DNA of 45,168 bases, taken from a virus. A program made the translations under genes and the position numbers. The DNA lies in UHGV virus genome UHGV-0041136; one strand, given 5' to 3'. Numbering within the stretch: the stretch's first letter is position 1; every line of letters begins with the position of its first letter. Positions 5,307 through 25,504 of the stretch are shown here, in pieces. The notes under the pieces were generated by a model that made no database searches, was not told the origin of the DNA, and saw nothing but the letters and a program-made list of their open reading frames with translations.

Positions 5307-5504
5307 TTACACCAGCGATGGCGGCTCTGGTAACGGCATCCAGTGGGTAACATCGTCACTACTGATATTCGAGTTACGCGGCGCCCAACAATCCCAGAAG
5401 CCATCGCAATCCCGCCACATCACCTCAACGTTACCCCCATCCGAAACCAGCACATCTTCAAATTCTTCCGGCATCCGTTCACTACACTCAATCCACTTAC
5501 CCAT
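5307..5504 (-). CDS. DUF551-like small protein, copy 1
   Basis: MGKWIECSERMPEE...VTHWMPLPEPPSLV; WMPLPEPP C-terminus as I recall for DUF551 phage proteins. Confidence 0.5.
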   Translation of the reverse strand: MGKWIECSERMPEEFEDVLVSDGGNVEVMWRDCDGFWDCWAPRNSNISSDDVTHWMPLPEPPSLV

Positions 5505-5514
5505 ATCTCACCCC

Positions 5515-5700
5515 TTATTCATCACACTTCAGAGACTCAGGTAACGGCATCCAGTGTGTTACGCCAACACACTTAACGTATCCATCACAAACAAAGTCAC
5601 CGATGTATCTTGCTATAAAGCCATACCCGGCGCGGGCATAAACAATTACGTCCTCACCCTCTTCCGGCATCCGTTCACTACACTCAATCCACTTACCCAT
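5515..5700 (-). CDS. DUF551-like small protein, copy 2 (tandem paralog)
   Basis: MGKWIECSERMPEEGEDV...VTHWMPLPESLKCDE; identical first 14 residues and shared C-terminal motif with 5307..5504. Confidence 0.5.
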   Translation of the reverse strand: MGKWIECSERMPEEGEDVIVYARAGYGFIARYIGDFVCDGYVKCVGVTHWMPLPESLKCDE

Positions 5701-6042: not shown

Positions 6043-6242
6043 TAACGGCAACCTCCCTCAGAGTCGTCGGCACGAGCATCATGATTCGATGCCGTTCGTA
6101 TGGAGCGCAAACTGTGAAGCATTCTTCCCGCGGAACTGGTGATAATTGTTATCCCATCTAAAATAACAACCTCGTACCGGTTTACTTGAAAATACACTTT
6201 CTCCAGTTCATGATGTTTCAGTTCTTCAAATAATTCTTCCAT
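6042..6242 (-). CDS. hypothetical protein
   Basis: ATG 6242 shares one base with the upstream TGA. Confidence 0.35.
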   Translation of the reverse strand: MEELFEELKHHELEKVYFQVNRYEVVILDGITIITSSAGRMLHSLRSIRTASNHDARADDSEGGCR

Positions 6243-6433
6243 CACTTCGCCCCTTTGAATTTAAAATTGTTGCCGATGAGCTCTAAATTATCGCGTAAGG
6301 CGAACCCAGTTTTCTTTCTTACCAGACCCCATACGTCAACCAGATTATCCTGGTCATACTCGTTCTCGTCCTGCAACACTAATACATATTGCCCTCCACG
6401 TTTAGTTTTAGCCAATTGACCCTTCTTAAACAT
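6242..6433 (-). CDS. hypothetical protein, first gene of the leftward operon
   Basis: ATG 6433 with AGGAG SD about 25 nt downstream of the promoter at 6468..6496. Confidence 0.45.
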   Translation of the reverse strand: MFKKGQLAKTKRGGQYVLVLQDENEYDQDNLVDVWGLVRKKTGFALRDNLELIGNNFKFKGAK

Positions 6434-6467
6434 AACCCTCACTCCTCTGTCTCGTTCCGATAAGTGA

Positions 6468-6496
6468 ATAGTATCCTATTATGTTGGGGTGTGCAA
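6468..6496 (-). promoter_or_regulatory. conserved promoter element, minus strand (-35 TTGCAC, 17 bp, -10 TACTAT) with AATAG-N4-CTATT
   Basis: plus strand gtgAATAGtatcCTATTatgttggggtGTGCAAg; near-identical to the element at 30060..30089 in reverse orientation. Confidence 0.5.
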
Positions 6497-6568
6497 GAGA
6501 ATAGTTACGTTGCCGTTGTGATTCTTCAGGGAGGGTTGTGCCTTTATTCTTATTACTTGGTAACTAAA

Positions 6569-6589
6569 GGGCAGGCCTTAAGCCTGCCC
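6569..6589. other. perfect 8-bp stem-loop GGGCAGGC-cttaa-GCCTGCCC in the divergent control region
   Basis: read directly; lies between divergent promoters so not obviously a terminator. Confidence 0.35.
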
Positions 6590-6866
6590 GGTAATCGTTA
6601 CATTTTTACGGTTGCGAATCTACGGCACTTTAAGAAAATCAGATACTTAAGAGATATGCTGCCGATGAGAATAGAGCTTGCCCAGAGCAACCGGAGATAC
6701 TAAGGAAGGAAAGTTACGATAATTCTCGTGTTCAGTAAGCCTGTGTTTAACCCTTTGCTTGACGCACGTGTTAAACATTCTTACAAGGTGAACAGGAATC
6801 AAAGTAACTAAGATATAGAAGCACCTTAAACGAAGATTTTCATAATGTCAATAGGTGCAATTATGT

Positions 6867-6895
6867 TTGATTTCCCATTATTCGCAATGTATACT
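6867..6895 (+). promoter_or_regulatory. candidate rightward promoter for the replication operon (-35 TTGATT, 17 bp, -10 TATACT)
   Basis: AT-rich region about 30 nt upstream of the HTH gene ATG 6928. Confidence 0.35.
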
Positions 6896-6927
6896 CGATT
6901 TTGTTAACTGATAATGAGGGTTTGAGA

Positions 6928-7098
6928 ATGACACAGAATGAGGTAGCTGAGCGTATCGGGGTTACTCGTCGAACGCTGAATAACTGGTTAAAGAGTGGGA
7001 AGTTCCCGGATTGTTGTATCCGCATTATGGGCCGCCGTCAGCCAGGTACTTTTGACCGGGAGAAAGTGGAAGCGTGGATTAAGGAGAATGTAAAATGA
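6928..7098 (+). CDS. small HTH DNA-binding protein (AlpA / excisionase-like HTH)
   Basis: ATG 6928 with GAGGG SD (track begins at TTG 6901); NEVAERIGVTRRTLNNWLKSGKFP...REKVEAWIKE resembles AlpA/Xis-type HTH. Confidence 0.55.
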   Translation: MTQNEVAERIGVTRRTLNNWLKSGKFPDCCIRIMGRRQPGTFDREKVEAWIKENVK

Positions 7099-16627: not shown

Positions 16628-17307
16628 TTGTCTGGTCATTGTTTGACGGTTCGGGCCTCATGGCCCAACCGTGGGCGGAAGCGGGCCATACGTGCTATTG
16701 TTTCAACTACGACGGTGCTGACCACGGCGACTACGCACGATTGGGTGCAAAAGTTGAACACGATAACATTCACTATATAAACGCGTGGATTGATAATAAG
16801 TTCGACTTCGAGGTTGCACCGGATATTATTTTCGCGTTCCCTCCGTGCACAGATTTAGCCGTTAGTGGCGCTGCGCATTTCGAAACGAAGCGGAGAAGGA
16901 ACCCAACGTTTCAGGTGGAGGCCGTGATTACATGCAAAGTGGCTGCGCGTCTGGCTAAAAAGTACAACGTACCCTATATGATTGAGAACCCTGTTAGCGT
17001 TCTCTCGTCTTTGTGGCGTAAGCCTGACTACGCGTTCAATCCATACGAATACGGCGGCTATTTACCCGAAGACGACACGCACCCAATGTTCCCCGAATAC
17101 ATAAAACCGCGGGACGCGTACCCTAAGAAGACATGTATTTGGGCGGGTAACGGTTTTGTGATGCCTGTTAAATCATGTGTCGCCGTGGTTGGCGGTTACT
17201 CTGACCAACACAATAAATTAGGCGGTAAATCGGTGAGGACAAAAACAATCCGCAGCCTTACCCCGCGGGGTTTCGCAAAAGCAGTTTATGAGGCCAATCA
17301 TGTCTAA
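16624..17307 (+). CDS. DNA (cytosine-5)-methyltransferase-like protein, unusually short (227 aa)
   Basis: motif I-like LFDGSG, motif IV-like FPPCTDLAVSG (Pro-Cys), motif VI-like MIENPV; no room for a canonical target-recognition domain. Confidence 0.5.
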   Translation: MIVWSLFDGSGLMAQPWAEAGHTCYCFNYDGADHGDYARLGAKVEHDNIHYINAWIDNKFDFEVAPDIIFAFPPCTDLAVSGAAHFETKRRRNPTFQVEAVITCKVAARLAKKYNVPYMIENPVSVLSSLWRKPDYAFNPYEYGGYLPEDDTHPMFPEYIKPRDAYPKKTCIWAGNGFVMPVKSCVAVVGGYSDQHNKLGGKSVRTKTIRSLTPRGFAKAVYEANHV

Positions 17308-18724
17308 GTTTCAAAGGCGCGAATACCAGAAGCTCATGACTTCGTTCATGTTGCGGCACCATCGCTGCAACATATGGGCAAGCATGGGCGCTGGGAAGAC
17401 TGGCAGCGTACTGTGGGCATTAAACCGACTGTTCCGCAACGGTCAACTTACGGACGACGACCGAGTGCTGATACTCGCCCCGTTACGTGTTGCATCTGGT
17501 ACGTGGCCCGCAGAACAAGAGAAGTGGCGGTTCCCTTGTCTGCGTGTCGTCGATGCTACCGGTTCAGAGAAGCGCCGTATCGCGGCGCTGGAGTCTGACG
17601 CTAACGTGGTATGCACTAACTACGAAGTTATCGAGTGGCTGATTGACTACTACGGCAAAGACGACTGGCCTTTTACCGTTATCGTTGCCGATGAAAGCAC
17701 GAAGCTTAAATCATTCCGCAGCCGTTCTGGCGGAAGCAAGCGTGCAAAAGCGCTTAGTAGAGTGGCGTTCGGAAAGGTTAAGCGTTTCATCAACCTGACG
17801 GGTACACCGTCGCCAAATGGCCTCAAGGACTTGTGGGGGCAGAACTGGTTTATCGACGCTGGCGAGCGCCTTGGTTCTTCATACACGGCATTCACAGACC
17901 GCTGGTTTAACTCGGTACAGAAAGGTAAGTCGGCGATGGCGCGTGAGTATCATGCACGCCCTGGCGCGGATAATGAGATCCACCAGAAGATGAAGGACAT
18001 TAGTCTCACGATTGACGCCGCTGAGTGGTTCGGCTGTGAAGCACCGATTATTGTACCGGTTGAAATCGACCTGCCGAAGAAAGCACGTCAGGCGTACATC
18101 GATATGGAGGAGAAGCTATTCGCGGAACTGGAGAGCGGAGAAGTTGAAGCGGCTAACGCCGCAGCGAAGACGTCGAAGTGTTTGCAGATTGCTTCCGGTG
18201 CCGTGTATGTTTCGGGGCCAGACGGCGAAGCAACGAAAGACTGGGAGAAAGTGCACGACACGAAACTGGATGCGCTGGAATCGATTGTTGAGGAGTTACA
18301 GGGTGCGCCATTACTGGTGGCCTATCAGTTCAAGCACGAACTTGAGCGCATCCTTAAGCGATTCCCGCAGGCACAGGCGTTTGCCAAAGGTGCGAAGGGT
18401 AATAAGCAGATGGAAGCGTGGAACCGTGGCGAAATCGAAATCCTATGCGTACATCCTGCGTCAGCCGGTCATGGTTTGAACTTACAGGATGGAGGACATC
18501 ATCTGGCGTTCATCTCGCAAGGCTGGAACCTTGAGCACTATTTGCAGGTCGTGGAGCGTATAGGGCCTGTACGCCAGAAACAGGCAGGCCACGAGCGCCC
18601 GGTGTTTCTTTACCATATAGTTGCTAAAGACACGCTGGACGAGGTTGTTGCCGCGCGTACCGACGAGAAGAAATCTGTACAGGAAGAGTTACTTAATTAC
18701 ATGAAGAGACGAGGTAAGAAATGA
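17288..18724 (+). CDS. SNF2-family helicase / ATPase
   Basis: Walker A GAGKTG, DEST box, LTGTPSPN motif; alternative ATG at 17300 has a better SD. Confidence 0.75.
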   Translation: MRPIMSKFQRREYQKLMTSFMLRHHRCNIWASMGAGKTGSVLWALNRLFRNGQLTDDDRVLILAPLRVASGTWPAEQEKWRFPCLRVVDATGSEKRRIAALESDANVVCTNYEVIEWLIDYYGKDDWPFTVIVADESTKLKSFRSRSGGSKRAKALSRVAFGKVKRFINLTGTPSPNGLKDLWGQNWFIDAGERLGSSYTAFTDRWFNSVQKGKSAMAREYHARPGADNEIHQKMKDISLTIDAAEWFGCEAPIIVPVEIDLPKKARQAYIDMEEKLFAELESGEVEAANAAAKTSKCLQIASGAVYVSGPDGEATKDWEKVHDTKLDALESIVEELQGAPLLVAYQFKHELERILKRFPQAQAFAKGAKGNKQMEAWNRGEIEILCVHPASAGHGLNLQDGGHHLAFISQGWNLEHYLQVVERIGPVRQKQAGHERPVFLYHIVAKDTLDEVVAARTDEKKSVQEELLNYMKRRGKK

Positions 18725-18858
18725 ACATCATAGCCCCGATTCCAGCACTGCAAAAACGTATCAAGGAGCTTGAGGAGGAGGTTATACGACTACGGCAGCA
18801 GAGAGATGCCGCTAATGCGCAACTGGCGTTTGTACTGGAGAAGTTATCAGAAGAGTAG
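18721..18858 (+). CDS. small coiled-coil protein (45 aa)
   Basis: ATGA overlap with SNF2 stop; followed by hairpin at 18864..18880. Confidence 0.3.
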   Translation: MNIIAPIPALQKRIKELEEEVIRLRQQRDAANAQLAFVLEKLSEE

Positions 18859-18899
18859 AGAAAAGGCCCCGTTTGGGGCTACTTTCAGGAGCAAATACA

Positions 18900-19220
18900 A
18901 TGAAACGTATTACCGCAATTGCAATCACTCTGGCCGCTGTTCTGGGCTGCTCGTATGTGGGGTCCGCCGCTGCCGTCACTCCGGTCGAAATGTGCCAGGA
19001 GCTGGCCGAAATGGGAGGCGTTATTGTCGACGCCCGCAACCGTGGCGACTCGCTGGAAAACGTAACCAGCATTATCAACGGCAGCGATATGACCCCGAGC
19101 CTTAAAGCGGGCATGACGCGCATCGCCATTACGATCTACAGCAATCCGTCGCTGAAACGCGCCGATGTTGTGGCGTATGGGTTTAAGGGCTGTATCGACG
19201 GAATGTCGGAGGATATGTGA
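18900..19220 (+). CDS. putative lipoprotein / secreted protein
   Basis: ATG 18900 with AGGAG SD; signal peptide MKRITAIAITLAAVLGC with lipobox-like VLGC. Confidence 0.5.
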   Translation: MKRITAIAITLAAVLGCSYVGSAAAVTPVEMCQELAEMGGVIVDARNRGDSLENVTSIINGSDMTPSLKAGMTRIAITIYSNPSLKRADVVAYGFKGCIDGMSEDM

Positions 19221-19388
19221 AAAACTGGAAGTGGTCTTTCAAATGGTGAAGTAGGTTTGACCTACTATTTGCCTTGTATATTGGGCATTTAATAGAAAAA
19301 TACCATCCAGAGCTTACAACTGACAACATGTTAAGAGTGGCGGTGATTTTCTTTATTGTAATCGGCATAAATATTCGGGGTAAGAGAA

Positions 19389-19757
19389 ATGACTGAGAAA
19401 GAATTACGCAAAGCCGCGCTCTTATATTTGGAAATGGCTGCGCTATCCTGCGCCAGGGGTGCGTACTACGATACGCTAAGTGGTTACAGAACATACATTA
19501 TAGGAGCCACACTAAGAGACGGAGGGGCGCGTACAGATAATCACGCTGATAATATGTTCCAGGCTGAAGAGAATGCCAGAAAAGCATTACAATCCTTAAT
19601 TGGAGAAAGAACGATATCAGTATTTGAAGAACATCATGGCGCAATCAGGGTAACTATTTGGCATGGCGAAAAATTAATAGGGCATTATTCTATTGAACAA
19701 AAATCCGTAAATGTTTTTGACGGTGAACCGCTAACTGCGGAAGGCGAACAAAAATGA
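19389..19757 (+). CDS. hypothetical protein
   Basis: ATG 19389; lies in AT-rich accessory segment. Confidence 0.45.
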   Translation: MTEKELRKAALLYLEMAALSCARGAYYDTLSGYRTYIIGATLRDGGARTDNHADNMFQAEENARKALQSLIGERTISVFEEHHGAIRVTIWHGEKLIGHYSIEQKSVNVFDGEPLTAEGEQK

Positions 19758-19965
19758 CTGAAGAACAACTGAAAGAGTGCGAGGCATAAGCAAACACCAT
19801 GTATACGTATCTACTGATAGGATTTGTGTTCTATTTGTGGTCAATATTACGTTGCCCAATAGCATTCTCAATACCCGTGAATATAGTGTTAATGATAATC
19901 TACACAATATTTTACCCTTTTATATTGTTATTCGCTGCGATAGCGCGATGCAAGGAGATATTGAA

Positions 19966-20223
19966 ATGACAAAATTAGTAATTCGCAAGAAAGAAGCACA
20001 ACCATGTGTGTTTATATTTCGGGCTGATGGTTCTTGTTACACTGAGTTGTTGCCCGGCATGGCGCCATCGAATCTTGACGTTGACCATATTAGCATTACT
20101 GGCCCTTACGATGCCGATTTGCTGAGAAAAGCTGCATACTTCGCCAATCTCATAGCTTGCACCGAAAAATTAAGAAGTAATTTTAATGAGTTGGGCTGCG
20201 ATATAGAGGTTATTTGTAAGTGA
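19966..20223 (+). CDS. hypothetical protein (85 aa)
   Basis: ATG 19966 with AAGGAG SD; track ORF from GTG 19777 extends through AT-rich non-coding-looking DNA. Confidence 0.4.
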   Translation: MTKLVIRKKEAQPCVFIFRADGSCYTELLPGMAPSNLDVDHISITGPYDADLLRKAAYFANLIACTEKLRSNFNELGCDIEVICK

Positions 20224-20226
20224 AAG

Positions 20227-20248
20227 ACGGGGCGTGACAGCGCCCCGT
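20227..20248. terminator. bidirectional hairpin terminator at the junction of the replication and structural modules
   Basis: ACGGGGCG-tgacag-CGCCCCGT 8-bp stem between convergent gene ends. Confidence 0.5.
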
Positions 20249-20255
20249 GTTAAAA

Positions 20256-20558
20256 TTAAATTACATCTTCTGTGTTCGCAAAATCCGGCAAAGTTCGAAG
20301 ATGCGCATAAGCCTGGTCTATTAAGTTAACTGTGCTATTCCAGTCCGGTGTAAATTGTACAGACTTGAAAACACCAGGCGCTGTTTCATCAACAATGTTA
20401 AAACCGTTAGTCTCAACGATCCATAAATCAGAGAGAAACACATCAAGACTAACAGAATTAACACTTCCTCTGAAAGTCTGGATGATGGCATATTTATAGC
20501 TAACATCACCATTTGAGGTTGTTGCATTAAAGGCGCCCTTAAGTGCTTTAATTGCCAT
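20256..20558 (-). CDS. hypothetical protein, last gene of structural operon
   Basis: ATG 20558 with GGAGGA SD overlapping the tailspike stop. Confidence 0.5.
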   Translation of the reverse strand: MAIKALKGAFNATTSNGDVSYKYAIIQTFRGSVNSVSLDVFLSDLWIVETNGFNIVDETAPGVFKSVQFTPDWNSTVNLIDQAYAHLRTLPDFANTEDVI

Positions 20559-20560
20559 AA

Positions 20561-22936
20561 TTATTCCTCCAGCGTATAACGCCATTGTGGGTTGGTTACG
20601 GTTCCGCTGGTAAGCGCAAATGTAACTTGTTCCTGGTATTTTAACTCAAGATTTATGTTATGTGTACCTACGGCAGTTGTCTGGAACACCGGAAAACCGT
20701 TTTTATTAACAGAGCATGAGCCTCCGCCGGATGGAATTGTTACCGACACGAAGTATTTCCCTGGACGTCGGAATGAGTAACTATAGGTGCTGCCGTCTGT
20801 CGGTATTTGCGCTGTGCCGTTATCGTGTGACGCCTCTCGCATCGCAAAAGAAGACTGCGACCCATCATTGGTGTAGCGCACACGGCAGAAGTCCGTTTGA
20901 CGGGTGCGTACCTTACCCAGCTGGTTTTTGTTCGCCAGGCGAACAACATAGTTTGTGGTATTACCCTCTAATTTGGCATCTTCACCAAATGATACAGTGC
21001 CAGTTGCACTGGTTGAAGCCACAGACACAATAGCAAGATTAGCCTCGGATTCCGACCCATAGCCCGCATGAACATTGTTTGTCCAGCAGTTCCAGTAAAA
21101 TTTAAAATCACCGCCGACAGTTGAATCAATTTCAATTGGGGGTGTGCAAGCCCATCCAAACTGGGAAGCGTTAAGATTCTGAGCAAAACCACTCTTAACG
21201 AAAATTCTGCTCGGATCTCCAGTAATCGCCTGGCGCTGCCCTCTATACTTAAGCTTGCTTAAGTCGTTTGTCATCAGGAAAAGCTTTGATACATCCCAGC
21301 AGGTAAGATGATCTATAGTCAGTTGAGAGTTAAACCCTACGCGTGCGAAACGCCCGGAGTTTTGAGCATGGACACCGCCCATGTGCACCTCTGAGTTACA
21401 AATCTCCAGCGCATAAAGATCATCGGTCTGGTTAGACGCTGCCCACGTGGTATTGCCACAGATAGCGATATGGCGGTTCATATGAACGTTGCGGCAGTCC
21501 CATATAGCTAGATGCCCTATACCACCTGCGCCAATTAAAATATTTTCCAGAGATAAAGTTCCGCATTCACTAAATACCAGGCCACCTGATTTTTCATTGT
21601 GGGGCACGTAATCTTCAAACGTCATCGTTAAATCATAACAGTTAGAAATATACCCATACGTGCGGTTATTTTGCGTCCACACCGAATGGAAATGGCCCAT
21701 ACCAGAACCAGTATTTGACAGCTTAAAGTCACGACCGCAGGTTTTGATATTGAAGGCCGCTTTACCAACGTTCTGGATTGATGGTAGGACAGAGGTAAGA
21801 TCTGGCCATTGGGCTGTTACTGCTGAGTAGTCTGATTTACCTGTACTGAAAAGCACGGTGCCAGGGTAGTTTCCTACCTGAACATCAAATTCAGGAGCAT
21901 TCACCATTGACTCTAGCCGTAGAATATAGTTTGTGTCTACTAACGATGCTATTTGAGTATCGGTATAATTGCCAGTTCTAAAAGCTATCTGCGTATTATC
22001 AATGCGAAGTTTGAATAGCGGATTATTGGCTTGCACGACAAAAAAGCCGCCATTCTCACCAATAGCAAAGTTGCCGTCTATTCCGAAACGATCTCCACCA
22101 CCAGAAGCAGGAAGCATCCACGATAATGATTCAGGAAATGTACCACAGCGGATATAGTGACGTTGTGCAAGATATACCGTGCCAAAATCAAGACCCTTAA
22201 TAATGCTTTGTGGGTATCCAGAATTAGATAATGACGCGGCTGCTTTTAAACAATTTTCAAATGCCGCATCTTGTGCTGCTGATGTTTGAAACTGATTTTT
22301 TGCACCAGCCCAAGCCATACGGATTTCATTATTTTCAAATGACCGCTTCCATAAACGGCCAAGACCATCACGAAGATGGACGCAATCATCGTCGGGTGTT
22401 GTAGTATCCCCATCTACCCGAAAAAATACGCCTTGCGCCCCATCGTATGACGCGGTTCTACCCCCGCAGAAAATAGATTTTAAAGGACCGTTGTATGCTC
22501 TGATTGCCGAATAGAAAGGCTGGCCGAGGAGCGACAGACCGGCGGTTCCCGATAATTCCTGCCGTAAAAGCTGGTCCGTTCTTGGTTTCCAGTTACTATC
22601 CGCGGTCGGGTCTGTCCCCGGGCTAACAACATGCGGCAGCGCCCCGGCCCATGAGTACCAGTTATTGTCCGCTGGGTTAAAAACCACAGTATCGCGTGAA
22701 GATACCGTGCCCCCGGTGGTGAAATCAAAAGACGCAGGGTCATAGCCTATGTCCCGTAGAATAGCGGGCAAAGTTTTTTGTGTTTGCCCGGTTACCTGGT
22801 TGGTGGCAAAATCTATAGGAGACCCTGACGAAACTCCGCCAGTGAGTCCAGTGATAACTTCGGCCTCAAAGGTCTGGTGCTTCTTGGCCGTTTTCAGATC
22901 TTCCAGCGATAAGACGTCGCCGCATCCGCTTGACAT
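20561..22936 (-). CDS. tailspike protein (conserved N-terminal anchor, probable beta-helix depolymerase body)
   Basis: 791 aa; ATG 22936 with AAGAGGA SD; G/N/S/T-rich repetitive core typical of beta-helix tailspikes; position after the J-like gene. Confidence 0.6.
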   Translation of the reverse strand: MSSGCGDVLSLEDLKTAKKHQTFEAEVITGLTGGVSSGSPIDFATNQVTGQTQKTLPAILRDIGYDPASFDFTTGGTVSSRDTVVFNPADNNWYSWAGALPHVVSPGTDPTADSNWKPRTDQLLRQELSGTAGLSLLGQPFYSAIRAYNGPLKSIFCGGRTASYDGAQGVFFRVDGDTTTPDDDCVHLRDGLGRLWKRSFENNEIRMAWAGAKNQFQTSAAQDAAFENCLKAAASLSNSGYPQSIIKGLDFGTVYLAQRHYIRCGTFPESLSWMLPASGGGDRFGIDGNFAIGENGGFFVVQANNPLFKLRIDNTQIAFRTGNYTDTQIASLVDTNYILRLESMVNAPEFDVQVGNYPGTVLFSTGKSDYSAVTAQWPDLTSVLPSIQNVGKAAFNIKTCGRDFKLSNTGSGMGHFHSVWTQNNRTYGYISNCYDLTMTFEDYVPHNEKSGGLVFSECGTLSLENILIGAGGIGHLAIWDCRNVHMNRHIAICGNTTWAASNQTDDLYALEICNSEVHMGGVHAQNSGRFARVGFNSQLTIDHLTCWDVSKLFLMTNDLSKLKYRGQRQAITGDPSRIFVKSGFAQNLNASQFGWACTPPIEIDSTVGGDFKFYWNCWTNNVHAGYGSESEANLAIVSVASTSATGTVSFGEDAKLEGNTTNYVVRLANKNQLGKVRTRQTDFCRVRYTNDGSQSSFAMREASHDNGTAQIPTDGSTYSYSFRRPGKYFVSVTIPSGGGSCSVNKNGFPVFQTTAVGTHNINLELKYQEQVTFALTSGTVTNPQWRYTLEE

Positions 22937-22948
22937 ATCAGAATCCTC

Positions 22949-25504
22949 TTATGAAAAACCGTTGCTGAATCCGTCGGAGAAACCGCGACCTAAAGGCGCG
23001 ACACCGTCGTATTTGTAGAAATCTTCATCGTAGTTGTATCCTGTAATCTTAACTGTGCGGTCATCGCCCGGGGCGATTGAAGAAACAACTATCTTCTGAG
23101 CATTATGCCTTGCTTCGTTGCCAAATGAAAACTCAGTTTTTAGCGCACTATTCCCTGTGTAGATTGCCTCCTCCGGCGCAGAGAGCATAATCACCTCGCG
23201 GTCGTGGCCTCCTTTGATAACTGAGATGCTTTGTACTGAGCCGTCGCGCTTCTTGAGAATGATGGAATGGTCGTCACCGGGGGTAAACATAACAGGCTGA
23301 GACAGCGTAAGTGTAAGCCCATTAACGGCGACAACATAGCCATCCTGTGGCGCGATACGTGAGCCCTTAACTACGCTGATTACCCCGCCGGGAGTAGCGA
23401 GAGCGCCTTCTTCGGTAGCCTCAAACTCTACGACAACTTTACTTAACGCATTGCGCTGGTAGCGGCGCCACGCTAACCAATAGGCCTGTTGGTAGTTTCG
23501 CACACCCTTCGATTCGTATTCCTCGGTGTTTGCGCCGAGTTCTTCTGGGATATAAATAGTTTCCTGTACGTTCGTATCAGGGTCGATGTACGAGAATGAC
23601 AGACTATCGTAGGTTGTCGAATCGTTGAACGTACGGGACCATTTCTCCGTCCCGGTAGTTTTGCTGCGGTGGGTGAACACCATCTCTGGTCCAGCGACTG
23701 GGCGGTCGAATCGCAGCATAATATCTGCGCCTTTACGGTACGCGGTGCAGAACACGGCTTCCGCTATAGTCTGAACGATGTCCTGCATCGTGGTGTCGTA
23801 GTCGTCGAACGTGTAGCAGAACTGCCCTGCCAATTCACTTCCGAAATAGGACTCAATTTCTTCCTGCACGGATAGTAACTTATCCATGTTTGACGTTGTC
23901 AGTTCCAGATTACCAACTGCGGGGTCGCGGGCCAGTCTGATTAGCGACTGCACCGCCTGCGTATTAGGTGTCATTACCGTAGCGAATACACCATTACCGA
24001 GATATTTGTAGCACATCTCGGTTGCAATCATACGCAGTTCCGGGTTATCGATACTGGCGGCCCGCGGCGTCTGTTTACGCGCGCAATGCACGGTAGTTCT
24101 GTTGCCGTAGTGGGGGGTAGTGTCCAGTGACTGCCCATACAGGTTGGTGAAGGTTATCTCGTCACTTACCGTACCGTCGAAATCTTTATCAGAGTTACTA
24201 ACCCGTCTAGCTCTTACGCGGACCCTGCTTGCCATTGGAAGGTAGCCGTAGGCGCTTGTTCCAGTGTAATCGGTGTTGCGACCAGTTACTACAACCCGTG
24301 TCGTGTAAATATCGCCAATCGGCTGTCTTTGTTCGTTTACTGCTTGAAATTGCAGCTCTATCGTGGCGCTTGCAGTGCTGTAGCTGCCGTTGTAACGGTA
24401 CATGCCGTTTGCCCCTGCAAAGTTGGCCAGGACTCGGTCAACACTTCCTCTGGTGATGTAGTACCAGTCTGTTAGCGACTTGTTGTATGTGTCCTGCGGG
24501 CGCATAGAGTTCTCCGCATCGTTGCCGCGGATAGCGTAGCCGACGGCAGCGTTCCAGTCAGATGTACGCCCTGTAATATCCAGTGTCACCGTATTTTCTG
24601 ATACGTCTAAAACCTGGTAATATCCGGTAAGGGACACGTTGTTTGTCGTCCACATAGGGTCGCAAACTACGATGTCACCTACGGATATATCTTCACTAAA
24701 ATCTACCGCTGACGAAGTTTCGGTAAGAGTGCCCGTGTTGCCAGATACAGATACGAATGCGGTTTCACCGTCAAAAACTACGCCTAAATCATTAGGCGCC
24801 TTAAGCACAACACCGTCAACGTCATCGTTCATAAAAGTAACGTATAACCTTTGATTTATAACGTCGCCGATTTGCAGTTGCGGTGTAGCTGTGTTGTTGG
24901 GGGAAGTGTACGGCGCGTACACGGCAACGGACGAGCCAGTAATATCACTAATCCTTGTATCACCTTCAGTAACACCATCCGCTTCGATATGCAGATGCCC
25001 GCGCCCTGCGTCGTAGTACGAATACTCCAGCAAAGCGCCCGTGGAGTTAAACGCCTTGTACGTCTGCATCAGGTCATTAGGAATTGTCTGTACAGTCCCG
25101 CATATGTCATAAGAGCGTTCGTAAGGGCGCGGCTTGTTGGAACGGTCGGTAAGGCTGTTGTTCGGTGACGTTGTCTGATTGTTAGTCGCCGTGTAGTCGG
25201 CATTAGGTGCCCTGTTAAGACCAAACAACTTAGCGATTGGCTTAAGGATAAAACCAAACACCTTCCCAATAGCGTTACCTATCCCGCCGCCCGCACCCTC
25301 GATAATGTGATATACAGCGTCTTCATCTTTAAGTGCGTCGAAGTCGTCCGTTACGTCGGTATCGTCACCAATCTCACCGAGGTAGACGCGCACCGGCACG
25401 CCGTCGGGGATACGGTTAATGACAAACTCCATCGGCATCCCGACGTGTTTTGTATGGTCGAAAGCCCCGTCGGCATTTCGCGTGTAGTGCAGGATTATCG
25501 CCAA
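22949..25504 (-). CDS. central tail fibre / tail tip protein (gpJ-like position)
   Basis: 851 aa following K/L/M-like genes; TTG start at 25504 with GGAG SD (alternative ATG 25438). Confidence 0.55.
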   Translation of the reverse strand: MAIILHYTRNADGAFDHTKHVGMPMEFVINRIPDGVPVRVYLGEIGDDTDVTDDFDALKDEDAVYHIIEGAGGGIGNAIGKVFGFILKPIAKLFGLNRAPNADYTATNNQTTSPNNSLTDRSNKPRPYERSYDICGTVQTIPNDLMQTYKAFNSTGALLEYSYYDAGRGHLHIEADGVTEGDTRISDITGSSVAVYAPYTSPNNTATPQLQIGDVINQRLYVTFMNDDVDGVVLKAPNDLGVVFDGETAFVSVSGNTGTLTETSSAVDFSEDISVGDIVVCDPMWTTNNVSLTGYYQVLDVSENTVTLDITGRTSDWNAAVGYAIRGNDAENSMRPQDTYNKSLTDWYYITRGSVDRVLANFAGANGMYRYNGSYSTASATIELQFQAVNEQRQPIGDIYTTRVVVTGRNTDYTGTSAYGYLPMASRVRVRARRVSNSDKDFDGTVSDEITFTNLYGQSLDTTPHYGNRTTVHCARKQTPRAASIDNPELRMIATEMCYKYLGNGVFATVMTPNTQAVQSLIRLARDPAVGNLELTTSNMDKLLSVQEEIESYFGSELAGQFCYTFDDYDTTMQDIVQTIAEAVFCTAYRKGADIMLRFDRPVAGPEMVFTHRSKTTGTEKWSRTFNDSTTYDSLSFSYIDPDTNVQETIYIPEELGANTEEYESKGVRNYQQAYWLAWRRYQRNALSKVVVEFEATEEGALATPGGVISVVKGSRIAPQDGYVVAVNGLTLTLSQPVMFTPGDDHSIILKKRDGSVQSISVIKGGHDREVIMLSAPEEAIYTGNSALKTEFSFGNEARHNAQKIVVSSIAPGDDRTVKITGYNYDEDFYKYDGVAPLGRGFSDGFSNGFS

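Follow-up and report, generated by a model that had tools for sequence, protein, structure and literature searches.

A tailspike exchange cassette with opposite-strand orphan genes, beside a new lipoprotein family, in a Kagunavirus genome

What occupies the junction between the replication operon and the tailspike gene of a Kagunavirus, and do the genes found there belong to the operon or to the spike? The question is raised by UHGV virus genome UHGV-0041136, analysed as a single window of 45,168 nucleotides (nt), in which positions 18860-20250 had been described from the sequence alone as an AT-rich accessory tail of the replication operon that encodes a lipoprotein and two unknown proteins. 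Megablast placed the window in the genus Kagunavirus (Guernseyvirinae) with an E. coli-type backbone; its first 25 kb were 87-89% identical to several Kagunavirus genomes over about two-thirds of their length. We consider it rather probable that the flagged stretch is the left part of a variable tailspike slot and holds two independent accessory units, a lipoprotein gene and the small-gene arm of a spike cassette. What is new at this locus is a tailspike exchange cassette with non-structural orphan genes on the opposite strand, located beside a conserved new lipoprotein family. The features of the locus are listed in Table 1.

The slot is the junction at which the early/replication operon on the + strand and the tail operon on the - strand converge. 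Block borders were obtained by pairwise blastn of the window against fetched loci, which are designated by L numbers where they have to be told apart. Homology to the Kagunavirus backbone, represented by fTaEco01, stopped at 18879, inside a small hairpin, and homology to all Guernseyvirinae loci picked up again at about 22555-22570. Nine loci bearing the lipoprotein gene shared only 18864-19224 and about 22555-22960 with the window and define the borders of the slot. In four reference Kagunaviruses, no cargo separated the 45-amino-acid (aa) open reading frame (ORF) that ends the backbone from the convergent tailspike gene, whose stop codon came 28-30 bp further on. Since these relatives carry none at the junction, the earlier idea of variable cargo at this position was right. 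At 18866-18879, the hairpin that ancestrally terminated transcription at this early/late junction now lies 1.7 kb from the spike.

The base composition separated the two units. Equal-sized windows of the genome had a GC content of 0.509 +/- 0.034, and only 0.4% of them were as low as the AT-rich part at 19225-20250. By block, the GC content was 0.554 for 18864-19224, 0.370 for 19225-19378 and 0.415 for 19379-20250. Low GC ran past the hairpin at 20227-20248, with values of 0.381 in the 100-aa ORF and 0.460 in the spike body, and ended at about 22.35-22.57 kb; the 3.19-kb block at 19379-22568 had the lowest GC content (0.440) among windows of that size. The AT-richness that had been noted after the SNF2 helicase holds for 19225-20250, but the lipoprotein gene is GC-rich and the tract passes the supposed end of the region to about 22.57 kb. 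The stretch is also accessory, as claimed before, given the reference Kagunaviruses without cargo, but it is made up of two blocks differing in GC content and origin.

The AT-rich block is one arm of a 3.2-kb cassette (19379-22568) that comprises the genes for a 122-aa protein, a 145-aa protein (deleted here), a 56-aa protein and an 85-aa protein, a hairpin and, on the opposite strand, the 100-aa ORF and the receptor-binding part of the spike. The cassette was found in three unrelated backbones (Kagunavirus, KpV2811-like and Seodaemunguvirus-like), with the right break-point at 22568, just before the conserved N-terminal domain. The window block matched L004 5991-9612 at 78-88% nt identity, apart from a 430-bp deletion in the window. 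In L004, SSB is followed by genes for 123-, 145-, 56- and 85-aa proteins and the hairpin, convergent to the 100-aa ORF and an 825-aa spike, and L005 carries the right half of the cassette in the same order. In L006 and L007, two holin genes are followed by a divergent Zn-ribbon ORF, a 121-aa gene, a 58-aa membrane protein gene and two paralogs of the 85-aa family (103 and 83 aa), and these small genes are convergent to a 99-aa ORF and the spike. L004 has the backbone of a KpV2811-like Klebsiella siphovirus (92-94% nt), and KpV2811 itself has no cargo, its SSB gene ending 28 bp from the convergent spike stop codon. L006 has a backbone akin to that of Seodaemunguvirus YMC16/01/N133 (Casjensviridae), where the holin genes come directly after the spike genes, again without cargo. 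Synteny persisted despite divergence of the proteins, which for the 122-, 56-, 85- and 100-aa proteins and the spike were 74, 35, 27, 56 and 74% identical (aa) to those of L006, respectively. The small genes of L006 end no co-directional operon, and therefore the phrase "tail of the replication operon" does not define them.

In the right arm, the receptor-binding part of the spike was 88% (nt) and 92% (aa) identical to that of L004. Phages that had been isolated on K. quasipneumoniae ATCC 700603 ("K6" in their records) and E. coli phage KWBSE43-6 have spikes with 65-76% identity (aa) to the spike body. The 100-aa ORF was 97, 91 and 56% identical (aa) to its counterparts in L004, L005 and L006, respectively. 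Counterparts at 44-63% aa were also present in Ackermannviridae and in Klebsiella phages of the Webervirus-like type, in each case following the spike, and the product of the ORF could be a spike chaperone or cap. PDB sequence matches of this ORF to phage baseplate proteins were at chance level only.

On the + strand, the 122-aa protein had only three clusters of relatives in a collection of 5.8 billion proteins and was 77% and 74% identical (aa) to its relatives in L004 and L006, with a ratio of nonsynonymous to synonymous substitution rates (dN/dS) of 0.09-0.27. In the same collection the 85-aa protein had one related cluster, and HMMER, run exhaustively over 1.84e9 representatives, returned only its already known relative, P0004; L006 carries two diverged paralogs (27% aa) in the corresponding position. 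The 56-aa protein was conserved at 98, 50 and 35% (aa) in L005, L004 and L006, respectively. All five genes were under purifying selection, with dN/dS values of 0.05-0.27 against homologs from other contigs, and are therefore real genes and not chance ORFs. A deletion of about 430 bp, corresponding to L004 6398-6830, took out the 145-aa gene in the window. The 122- and 145-aa proteins both begin MTE.EL and were considered as possible paralogs, which BLASTP did not support. As its Shine-Dalgarno (SD) sequence, the 56-aa gene has AAGGAG in L004 and L005 and AAGCAAAC in the window, where it was mutated at the deletion junction (19754-19832). Strong SD sequences had been ascribed to the ORFs at 19389..19757 and 19966..20223; both ORFs exist and AAGGAG precedes 19966, but the SD before 19389 is weaker (GGTAAGAG). 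The hairpin at 20227-20248 folded at -20.2 kcal/mol on the + strand and -16.1 kcal/mol on the - strand (z -5.3 and -4.4, respectively), and no shuffled sequence folded as well. It had been read as a bidirectional terminator, and it is indeed very stable on both strands, but its T-tract is poor on the + strand and it is terminator-like only on the - strand.

No match was obtained by tblastn of the 122- and 85-aa proteins against 50,697 phage records, nor by scans of IMG/VR, JGI metagenomes and GTDB genomes for the two families. The 5,426 complete E. coli genomes searched by blastn likewise gave no match to the region, which is therefore not prophage- or host-derived DNA. The 122-aa protein matched nothing in Pfam, NCBIfam, PADLOC or PDB. 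When it was scanned together with the 56- and 85-aa proteins and the lipoprotein against PADLOC, Pfam and NCBIfam, only a chance-level match to SduA (E 0.05) was returned.

The other unit is a single gene. Block 18864-19224 was 89% identical (nt) to Klebsiella phage 37P2 and 90-92% identical to seven IMG/VR Guernseyvirinae contigs, and none of these matched anything further in the window until the N-terminal domain of the spike at about 22555-22570. The lipoprotein begins MKRITAIAITLAAVLGC, which reads as MKR, a hydrophobic core and V-L-G-C17, i.e. MKR-ITAIAITLAAVLG-C17. A rule of the PROSITE PS51257 type was applied, in which a positively charged N-region and an uncharged hydrophobic core are followed by [LIVMFWSTAG]2-[LIVMFYSTAGCQ]-[AGS]-C with Cys at position 15-35. 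Of the 48 full-length relatives, 47 fitted this pattern. The preliminary description was correct on the ORF at 18900..19220 and on its lipobox VLGC. Cys17 was at least 90% conserved in an alignment of 28 sequences, and the N-terminal 20 residues were best kept, even in a relative of 42% identity. In E. coli, Ser directly after the lipobox Cys predicts sorting to the outer membrane (the +2 rule); the +2 residue was Ser in all relatives, and outer-membrane sorting is therefore predicted. An SD-like AGGAG motif lies 5' of the start at 18900, and dN/dS was 0.14-0.22 against homologs from other contigs.

The lipoprotein family comprised about 50 clusters in the 5.8-billion-protein collection, nearly all of 106 aa and on contigs of 40-45 kb. 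Among GenBank phages, it was limited to a few Klebsiella phages, and most Kagunaviruses lack it. A scan of GTDB genomes gave one 3.5-kb contig of a metagenome-assembled genome; as this sole match also carries a match to the N-terminal region of the window's spike, the family looks phage-only. In every examined Guernseyvirinae locus, the lipoprotein gene was the last or next-to-last gene before the convergent spike. Nearly identical lipoproteins (81-98% aa) stood beside at least eight different spikes, which were 607-1207 aa long and wholly different in their C-terminal parts. The lipoprotein gene is a constant gene flanking the variable slot in Klebsiella-type Guernseyvirinae and is no partner of any single spike.

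Damaged and distant copies of the gene were also seen. Kagunavirus BCH953P1 (OZ035754.1, L003 4190-4318) has a truncated remnant of 42 aa, and Klebsiella phage VLCpiS11a (L020 3526-3765) has a disrupted copy annotated as 79 aa. Repeated loss at the spike-swap junction is evident from these copies, and the gene is therefore gained and lost. The 42%-identical relative, which keeps the signal peptide and lipobox, belongs to a reverse-oriented island of five genes (L010 4790-6277) on an unrelated phage contig; the tail-tube and tape-measure-chaperone genes flank the island.

The AlphaFold2 model of the lipoprotein showed a mature domain of five helices, with a pLDDT of 67.5 overall and 74-89 in the core. 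The conserved residues Cys32 and Cys98 could form a periplasmic disulfide. A profile search against all PDB chains (E<=10) returned three unrelated enzymes only and neither Llp nor Rtp45, Foldseek of the model against PDB gave no match at E<1 and nothing specific, and the Pfam scan found no family. Fold matches in BFVD were weak (E 0.01-0.3, TM-score 0.55-0.68) and fell on phage entries of about 100 aa named "lipoprotein" or "exported protein" from many phage groups, which hint at a wider, uncharacterised structural family.

These features suggest a mechanism for the first unit. The gene would have been imported from Klebsiella-type Guernseyvirinae into an E. coli-type Kagunavirus backbone, and its product would probably be expressed with the early genes, lipidated and set in the outer membrane, with a helical and probably disulfide-bonded domain of about 89 residues exposed to the periplasm. 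We infer that it would most likely alter the envelope of the infected cell and exclude related phages at a step after glycan binding. The target, if any, might be, for example, the passage across the outer membrane on which the constant J-like tail tip relies. By analogy, the position beside a receptor-binding gene favours a role in superinfection exclusion. Porin-targeting small siphoviruses carry exclusion lipoproteins at the locus adjoining the receptor-binding protein (PMC11990801), and the exclusion factors at such loci include Llp, Cor and Rtp45 (PMC11990801, PMC12685063). Like Llp of T5, Rtp45 of Rtp and Cor of T1/phi80, the protein encoded here is a small phage lipoprotein with an outer-membrane sorting signal (predicted here). 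As in those phages, its gene lies downstream of that for the J-like tail protein, at the locus of the receptor-binding protein, and points with the early genes, opposite to the late receptor-binding gene (PMC11990801, PMC12685063). It differs from all three in having no sequence or fold similarity to them, and from Llp and Rtp45 in size, as these are about 6 kDa (PMC12685063) and the mature part in the window is about 89 aa and helical. It further differs from all three systems in that its phage group is reported to depend on a glycan, not a porin, as the terminal receptor, and in that its allele does not co-vary with the receptor-binding allele. The authors of the BASEL work state that such a receptor-inactivation strategy is not recognisable in O-antigen-dependent virulent phages (PMC11990801). 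The conserved lipoprotein flanking the slot offers a concrete candidate for an exclusion function, the absence of which from glycan-dependent small siphoviruses has been reported.

The preliminary description had gone further, taking the whole stretch as one tail of the replication operon and suggesting that the lipoprotein is a superinfection-exclusion factor that blocks a receptor; Llp of T5 blocks FhuA in such a way. All ORFs are indeed co-directional with the replication operon, and read-through is plausible with the hairpin at 18866-18879 being weak on the + strand. The lipobox is conserved, and porin-targeting small siphoviruses keep exclusion lipoproteins such as Rtp45 and Llp beside the receptor-binding gene (PMC11990801, PMC12685063). 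However, the two blocks differ in origin and GC content, and in L006 the AT-rich genes stand at the end of no co-directional operon. A glycan is apparently the sole, terminal receptor of Kagunaviruses (PMC11990801), so that there is no obvious protein receptor to block, and the lipoprotein resembles Llp and Rtp45 neither in sequence nor in size or fold. The lipoprotein is also paired with many spikes; since it co-occurs with at least eight different ones, exclusion, if any, does not block the glycan receptor of the spike. We therefore regard this earlier explanation as unlikely. A role of the 106-aa protein in lysis or envelope remodelling, for example as a spanin-like protein and not as an exclusion factor, would agree with its predicted outer-membrane location and with the weak BFVD matches to entries of about 100 aa that are named only "lipoprotein" or "exported protein". 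It is very improbable, as the gene closes the early operon at a distance from any lysis genes and with no overlapping or adjacent partner of the i-spanin type, and as most Kagunaviruses lack the gene, so that its product cannot be an essential lysis component. Moreover, o-spanins are proline-rich and unstructured, and the mature part is modelled as a compact helical bundle.

For the small genes, the alternative is that they are hitch-hikers at a recombination hot spot, either morons of a generic kind, acting early in host takeover or anti-defence, or selfish filler, and without a functional tie to the spike. Each spike variant in the slot comes with small, unrelated ORFs of its own on the two strands, the orphan genes turn over fast, one gene was deleted and one SD lost in this phage, and more distant spikes of the same family occur without these genes. 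Against this, the same order is found beside the same spike family in three unrelated backbones, with proteins down to 27-35% identity, a persistence that exceeds the expected span of simple hitch-hiking in mosaic phages, and all of the genes are under purifying selection. Hitch-hiking is a serious rival, though it seems to us somewhat unlikely.

Several observations weigh against the slot with two accessory units as we interpret it. In the lipoprotein, the -2 residue Leu is atypical and lies outside the strict [ASTVI] consensus, and an alternative signal-peptidase-I site is possible from the sequence (AAA/V, after residue 25). The AlphaFold2 model of the 122-aa protein had a pLDDT of 51.8 and was not used for a fold search, and scans of the window ORFs against Pfam, PHROGs, NCBIfam, PADLOC and PDB gave no family beyond PHROGs without an assigned function and no match to the defence library. 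The window scan found no sigma70-like promoter on the + strand upstream of either the lipoprotein unit or the AT-rich arm. Such a promoter precedes the small-gene arm in L004 (10/12 matches) and L006, and the arm of the window probably depends on read-through past two weak hairpins. Judging from the losses of the 145-aa gene and of the SD of the 56-aa ORF, this phage seems able to do without some of the arm at least, and the arm appears to be decaying in it. Finally, the 122/85 genes do not accompany the related spikes (65-76% aa) of KX1, Ackermannviridae and Webervirus-like phages, and the linkage is therefore limited to one spike subclade in three backbones; some cassette copies may descend from a single ancient cassette and not from repeated co-selection.

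With these points considered, we still prefer the slot with two accessory units, in which the cassette would be transferred whole between unrelated siphovirus backbones, so that the small genes would belong with the spike and not with the replication operon. In the window phage, read-through would give early expression of the arm genes; in the other two backbones, they would be transcribed early from a sigma70-type promoter of their own. The persistent linkage to the spike suggests an arm function matched to the receptor or host chosen by the spike, which may be interference with the surface glycan or a host-specific takeover or anti-defence role. A more specific version, in which an early-made 122/56/85 arm shuts down or masks the capsule or O-antigen of the spike and so prevents superinfection and the loss of progeny to debris, is quite improbable at present; if true, a glycan-masking arm would be the glycan counterpart of the pairs of receptor-binding protein with Llp or Cor.

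The two units were compared with known accessory systems. As with the morons of lambdoid and other phages, they are present or absent at the same junction in close relatives, deviate in GC content (0.554 and 0.415 versus 0.51) and are bracketed by hairpins. Morons are classically known from temperate phages and have their own promoter, and none was found in the window, though the arm has one in L004 and L006; the AT-rich unit, in contrast, is no stand-alone insertion, as it forms an arm of a larger cassette together with a domain of a structural gene. The modular exchange of tailspikes and depolymerases in Klebsiella and E. coli phages has the same break-point directly after the conserved N-terminal anchor domain and likewise involves a receptor-binding part common to siphoviruses and Ackermannviridae (65-92% aa). 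The unit described here adds to this the 100-aa ORF and, on the other strand, three to five small non-structural genes. Seroconversion modules adjoin the tailspike genes of temperate phages, such as gtrABC in P22 and the O-polymerase inhibitors in epsilon15 and D3. They offer a lead, in that small membrane proteins stand beside a glycan-specific spike and the 56-aa protein with its two transmembrane segments would fit; they differ in that no homology was detected, the window phage is virulent and the cassette is without a glycan-modifying enzyme.

Tailspike swapping is the main way in which these phages change host, and Kagunaviruses serve as chassis for engineered therapeutic phages. If a spike cassette includes opposite-strand genes of a non-structural kind, functional partners may be overlooked when only the spike is annotated or transplanted. 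Without a phenotype, the locus would be a well-mapped case of ordinary phage mosaicism.

Table 1. Features at the tailspike slot of the window and its borders (dG, folding free energy; aa, amino acids; SD, Shine-Dalgarno sequence).
Feature	Position	Strand	Remarks
HepA/SNF2-type helicase gene	17288-18724		upstream of the flagged region, followed by the 45-aa ORF
45-aa coiled-coil ORF	18721..18858	+	phrog_5915, E 6e-27; last backbone gene of the replication operon; missed in the preliminary description
Single-gene homology block with lipoprotein gene	18864..19224	+	GC 0.554; homology ends 4 nt past the stop codon
Short GC hairpin	18866..18879		dG -10.2 (-), -13.3 (+); terminator-like on - strand, weak on +; like the 45-aa ORF, between the helicase and the region
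106-aa prolipoprotein	18900..19220	+	signal peptide, lipobox VLGC17, Ser +2; mature part about 89 aa with Cys32 and Cys98
AT-rich spacer	19225..19378		GC 0.37; unique to this phage type, with matches in no locus but L015 and L016 (copies of the same phage)
Hairpin in spacer	19250-19266		dG -11.5, z -3.4
122-aa soluble protein	19389..19757	+	first gene of the + strand arm of the cassette
11-codon remnant MTEEQLKECEA* of 145-aa gene	19754..19789	+	gene intact in L004, partial in L005; missed in the preliminary description
56-aa protein with two hydrophobic helices	19799..19969	+	ATGA overlap with 85-aa ORF; missed in the preliminary description
85-aa soluble protein	19966..20223	+	SD AAGGAG; dN/dS 0.13-0.21
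Strong GC hairpin	20227..20248		between the convergent cassette arms; L004 counterpart gacggggcgcggccgcgccccgtc
100-aa ORF (109 from upstream ATG overlapping the spike stop)	20256..20585	-	directly after the spike stop; phrog_18037
Receptor-binding/catalytic part of tailspike	20561..22568	-	GC 0.46; right arm of the cassette
Constant Guernseyvirinae N-terminal (tail-attachment) spike domain	22569..22936	-	Tail_spike_N match; GC 0.538; right border of the slot

Some minor observations were made on neighbouring and comparable genes. The 45-aa coiled-coil ORF is labelled "exonuclease subunit SbcD" in several GenBank Kagunavirus records, which on a coiled coil of 45 residues looks like a propagated annotation error. 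Small zinc-ribbon ORFs of the type CxxC...CxxC recur in differing spike slots (L006 1656-1913 and L023 6321-6485), with no detectable mutual similarity. The only other AT-rich island of the genome lies at about 6100-7000 (GC about 0.40-0.42) and is dense with small ORFs on the - strand. Just upstream of this island are two tandem paralogous ORFs on the - strand (5307-5504 and 5515-5700), which encode proteins of 61-65 aa that both begin MGKWIECSERMPEE.

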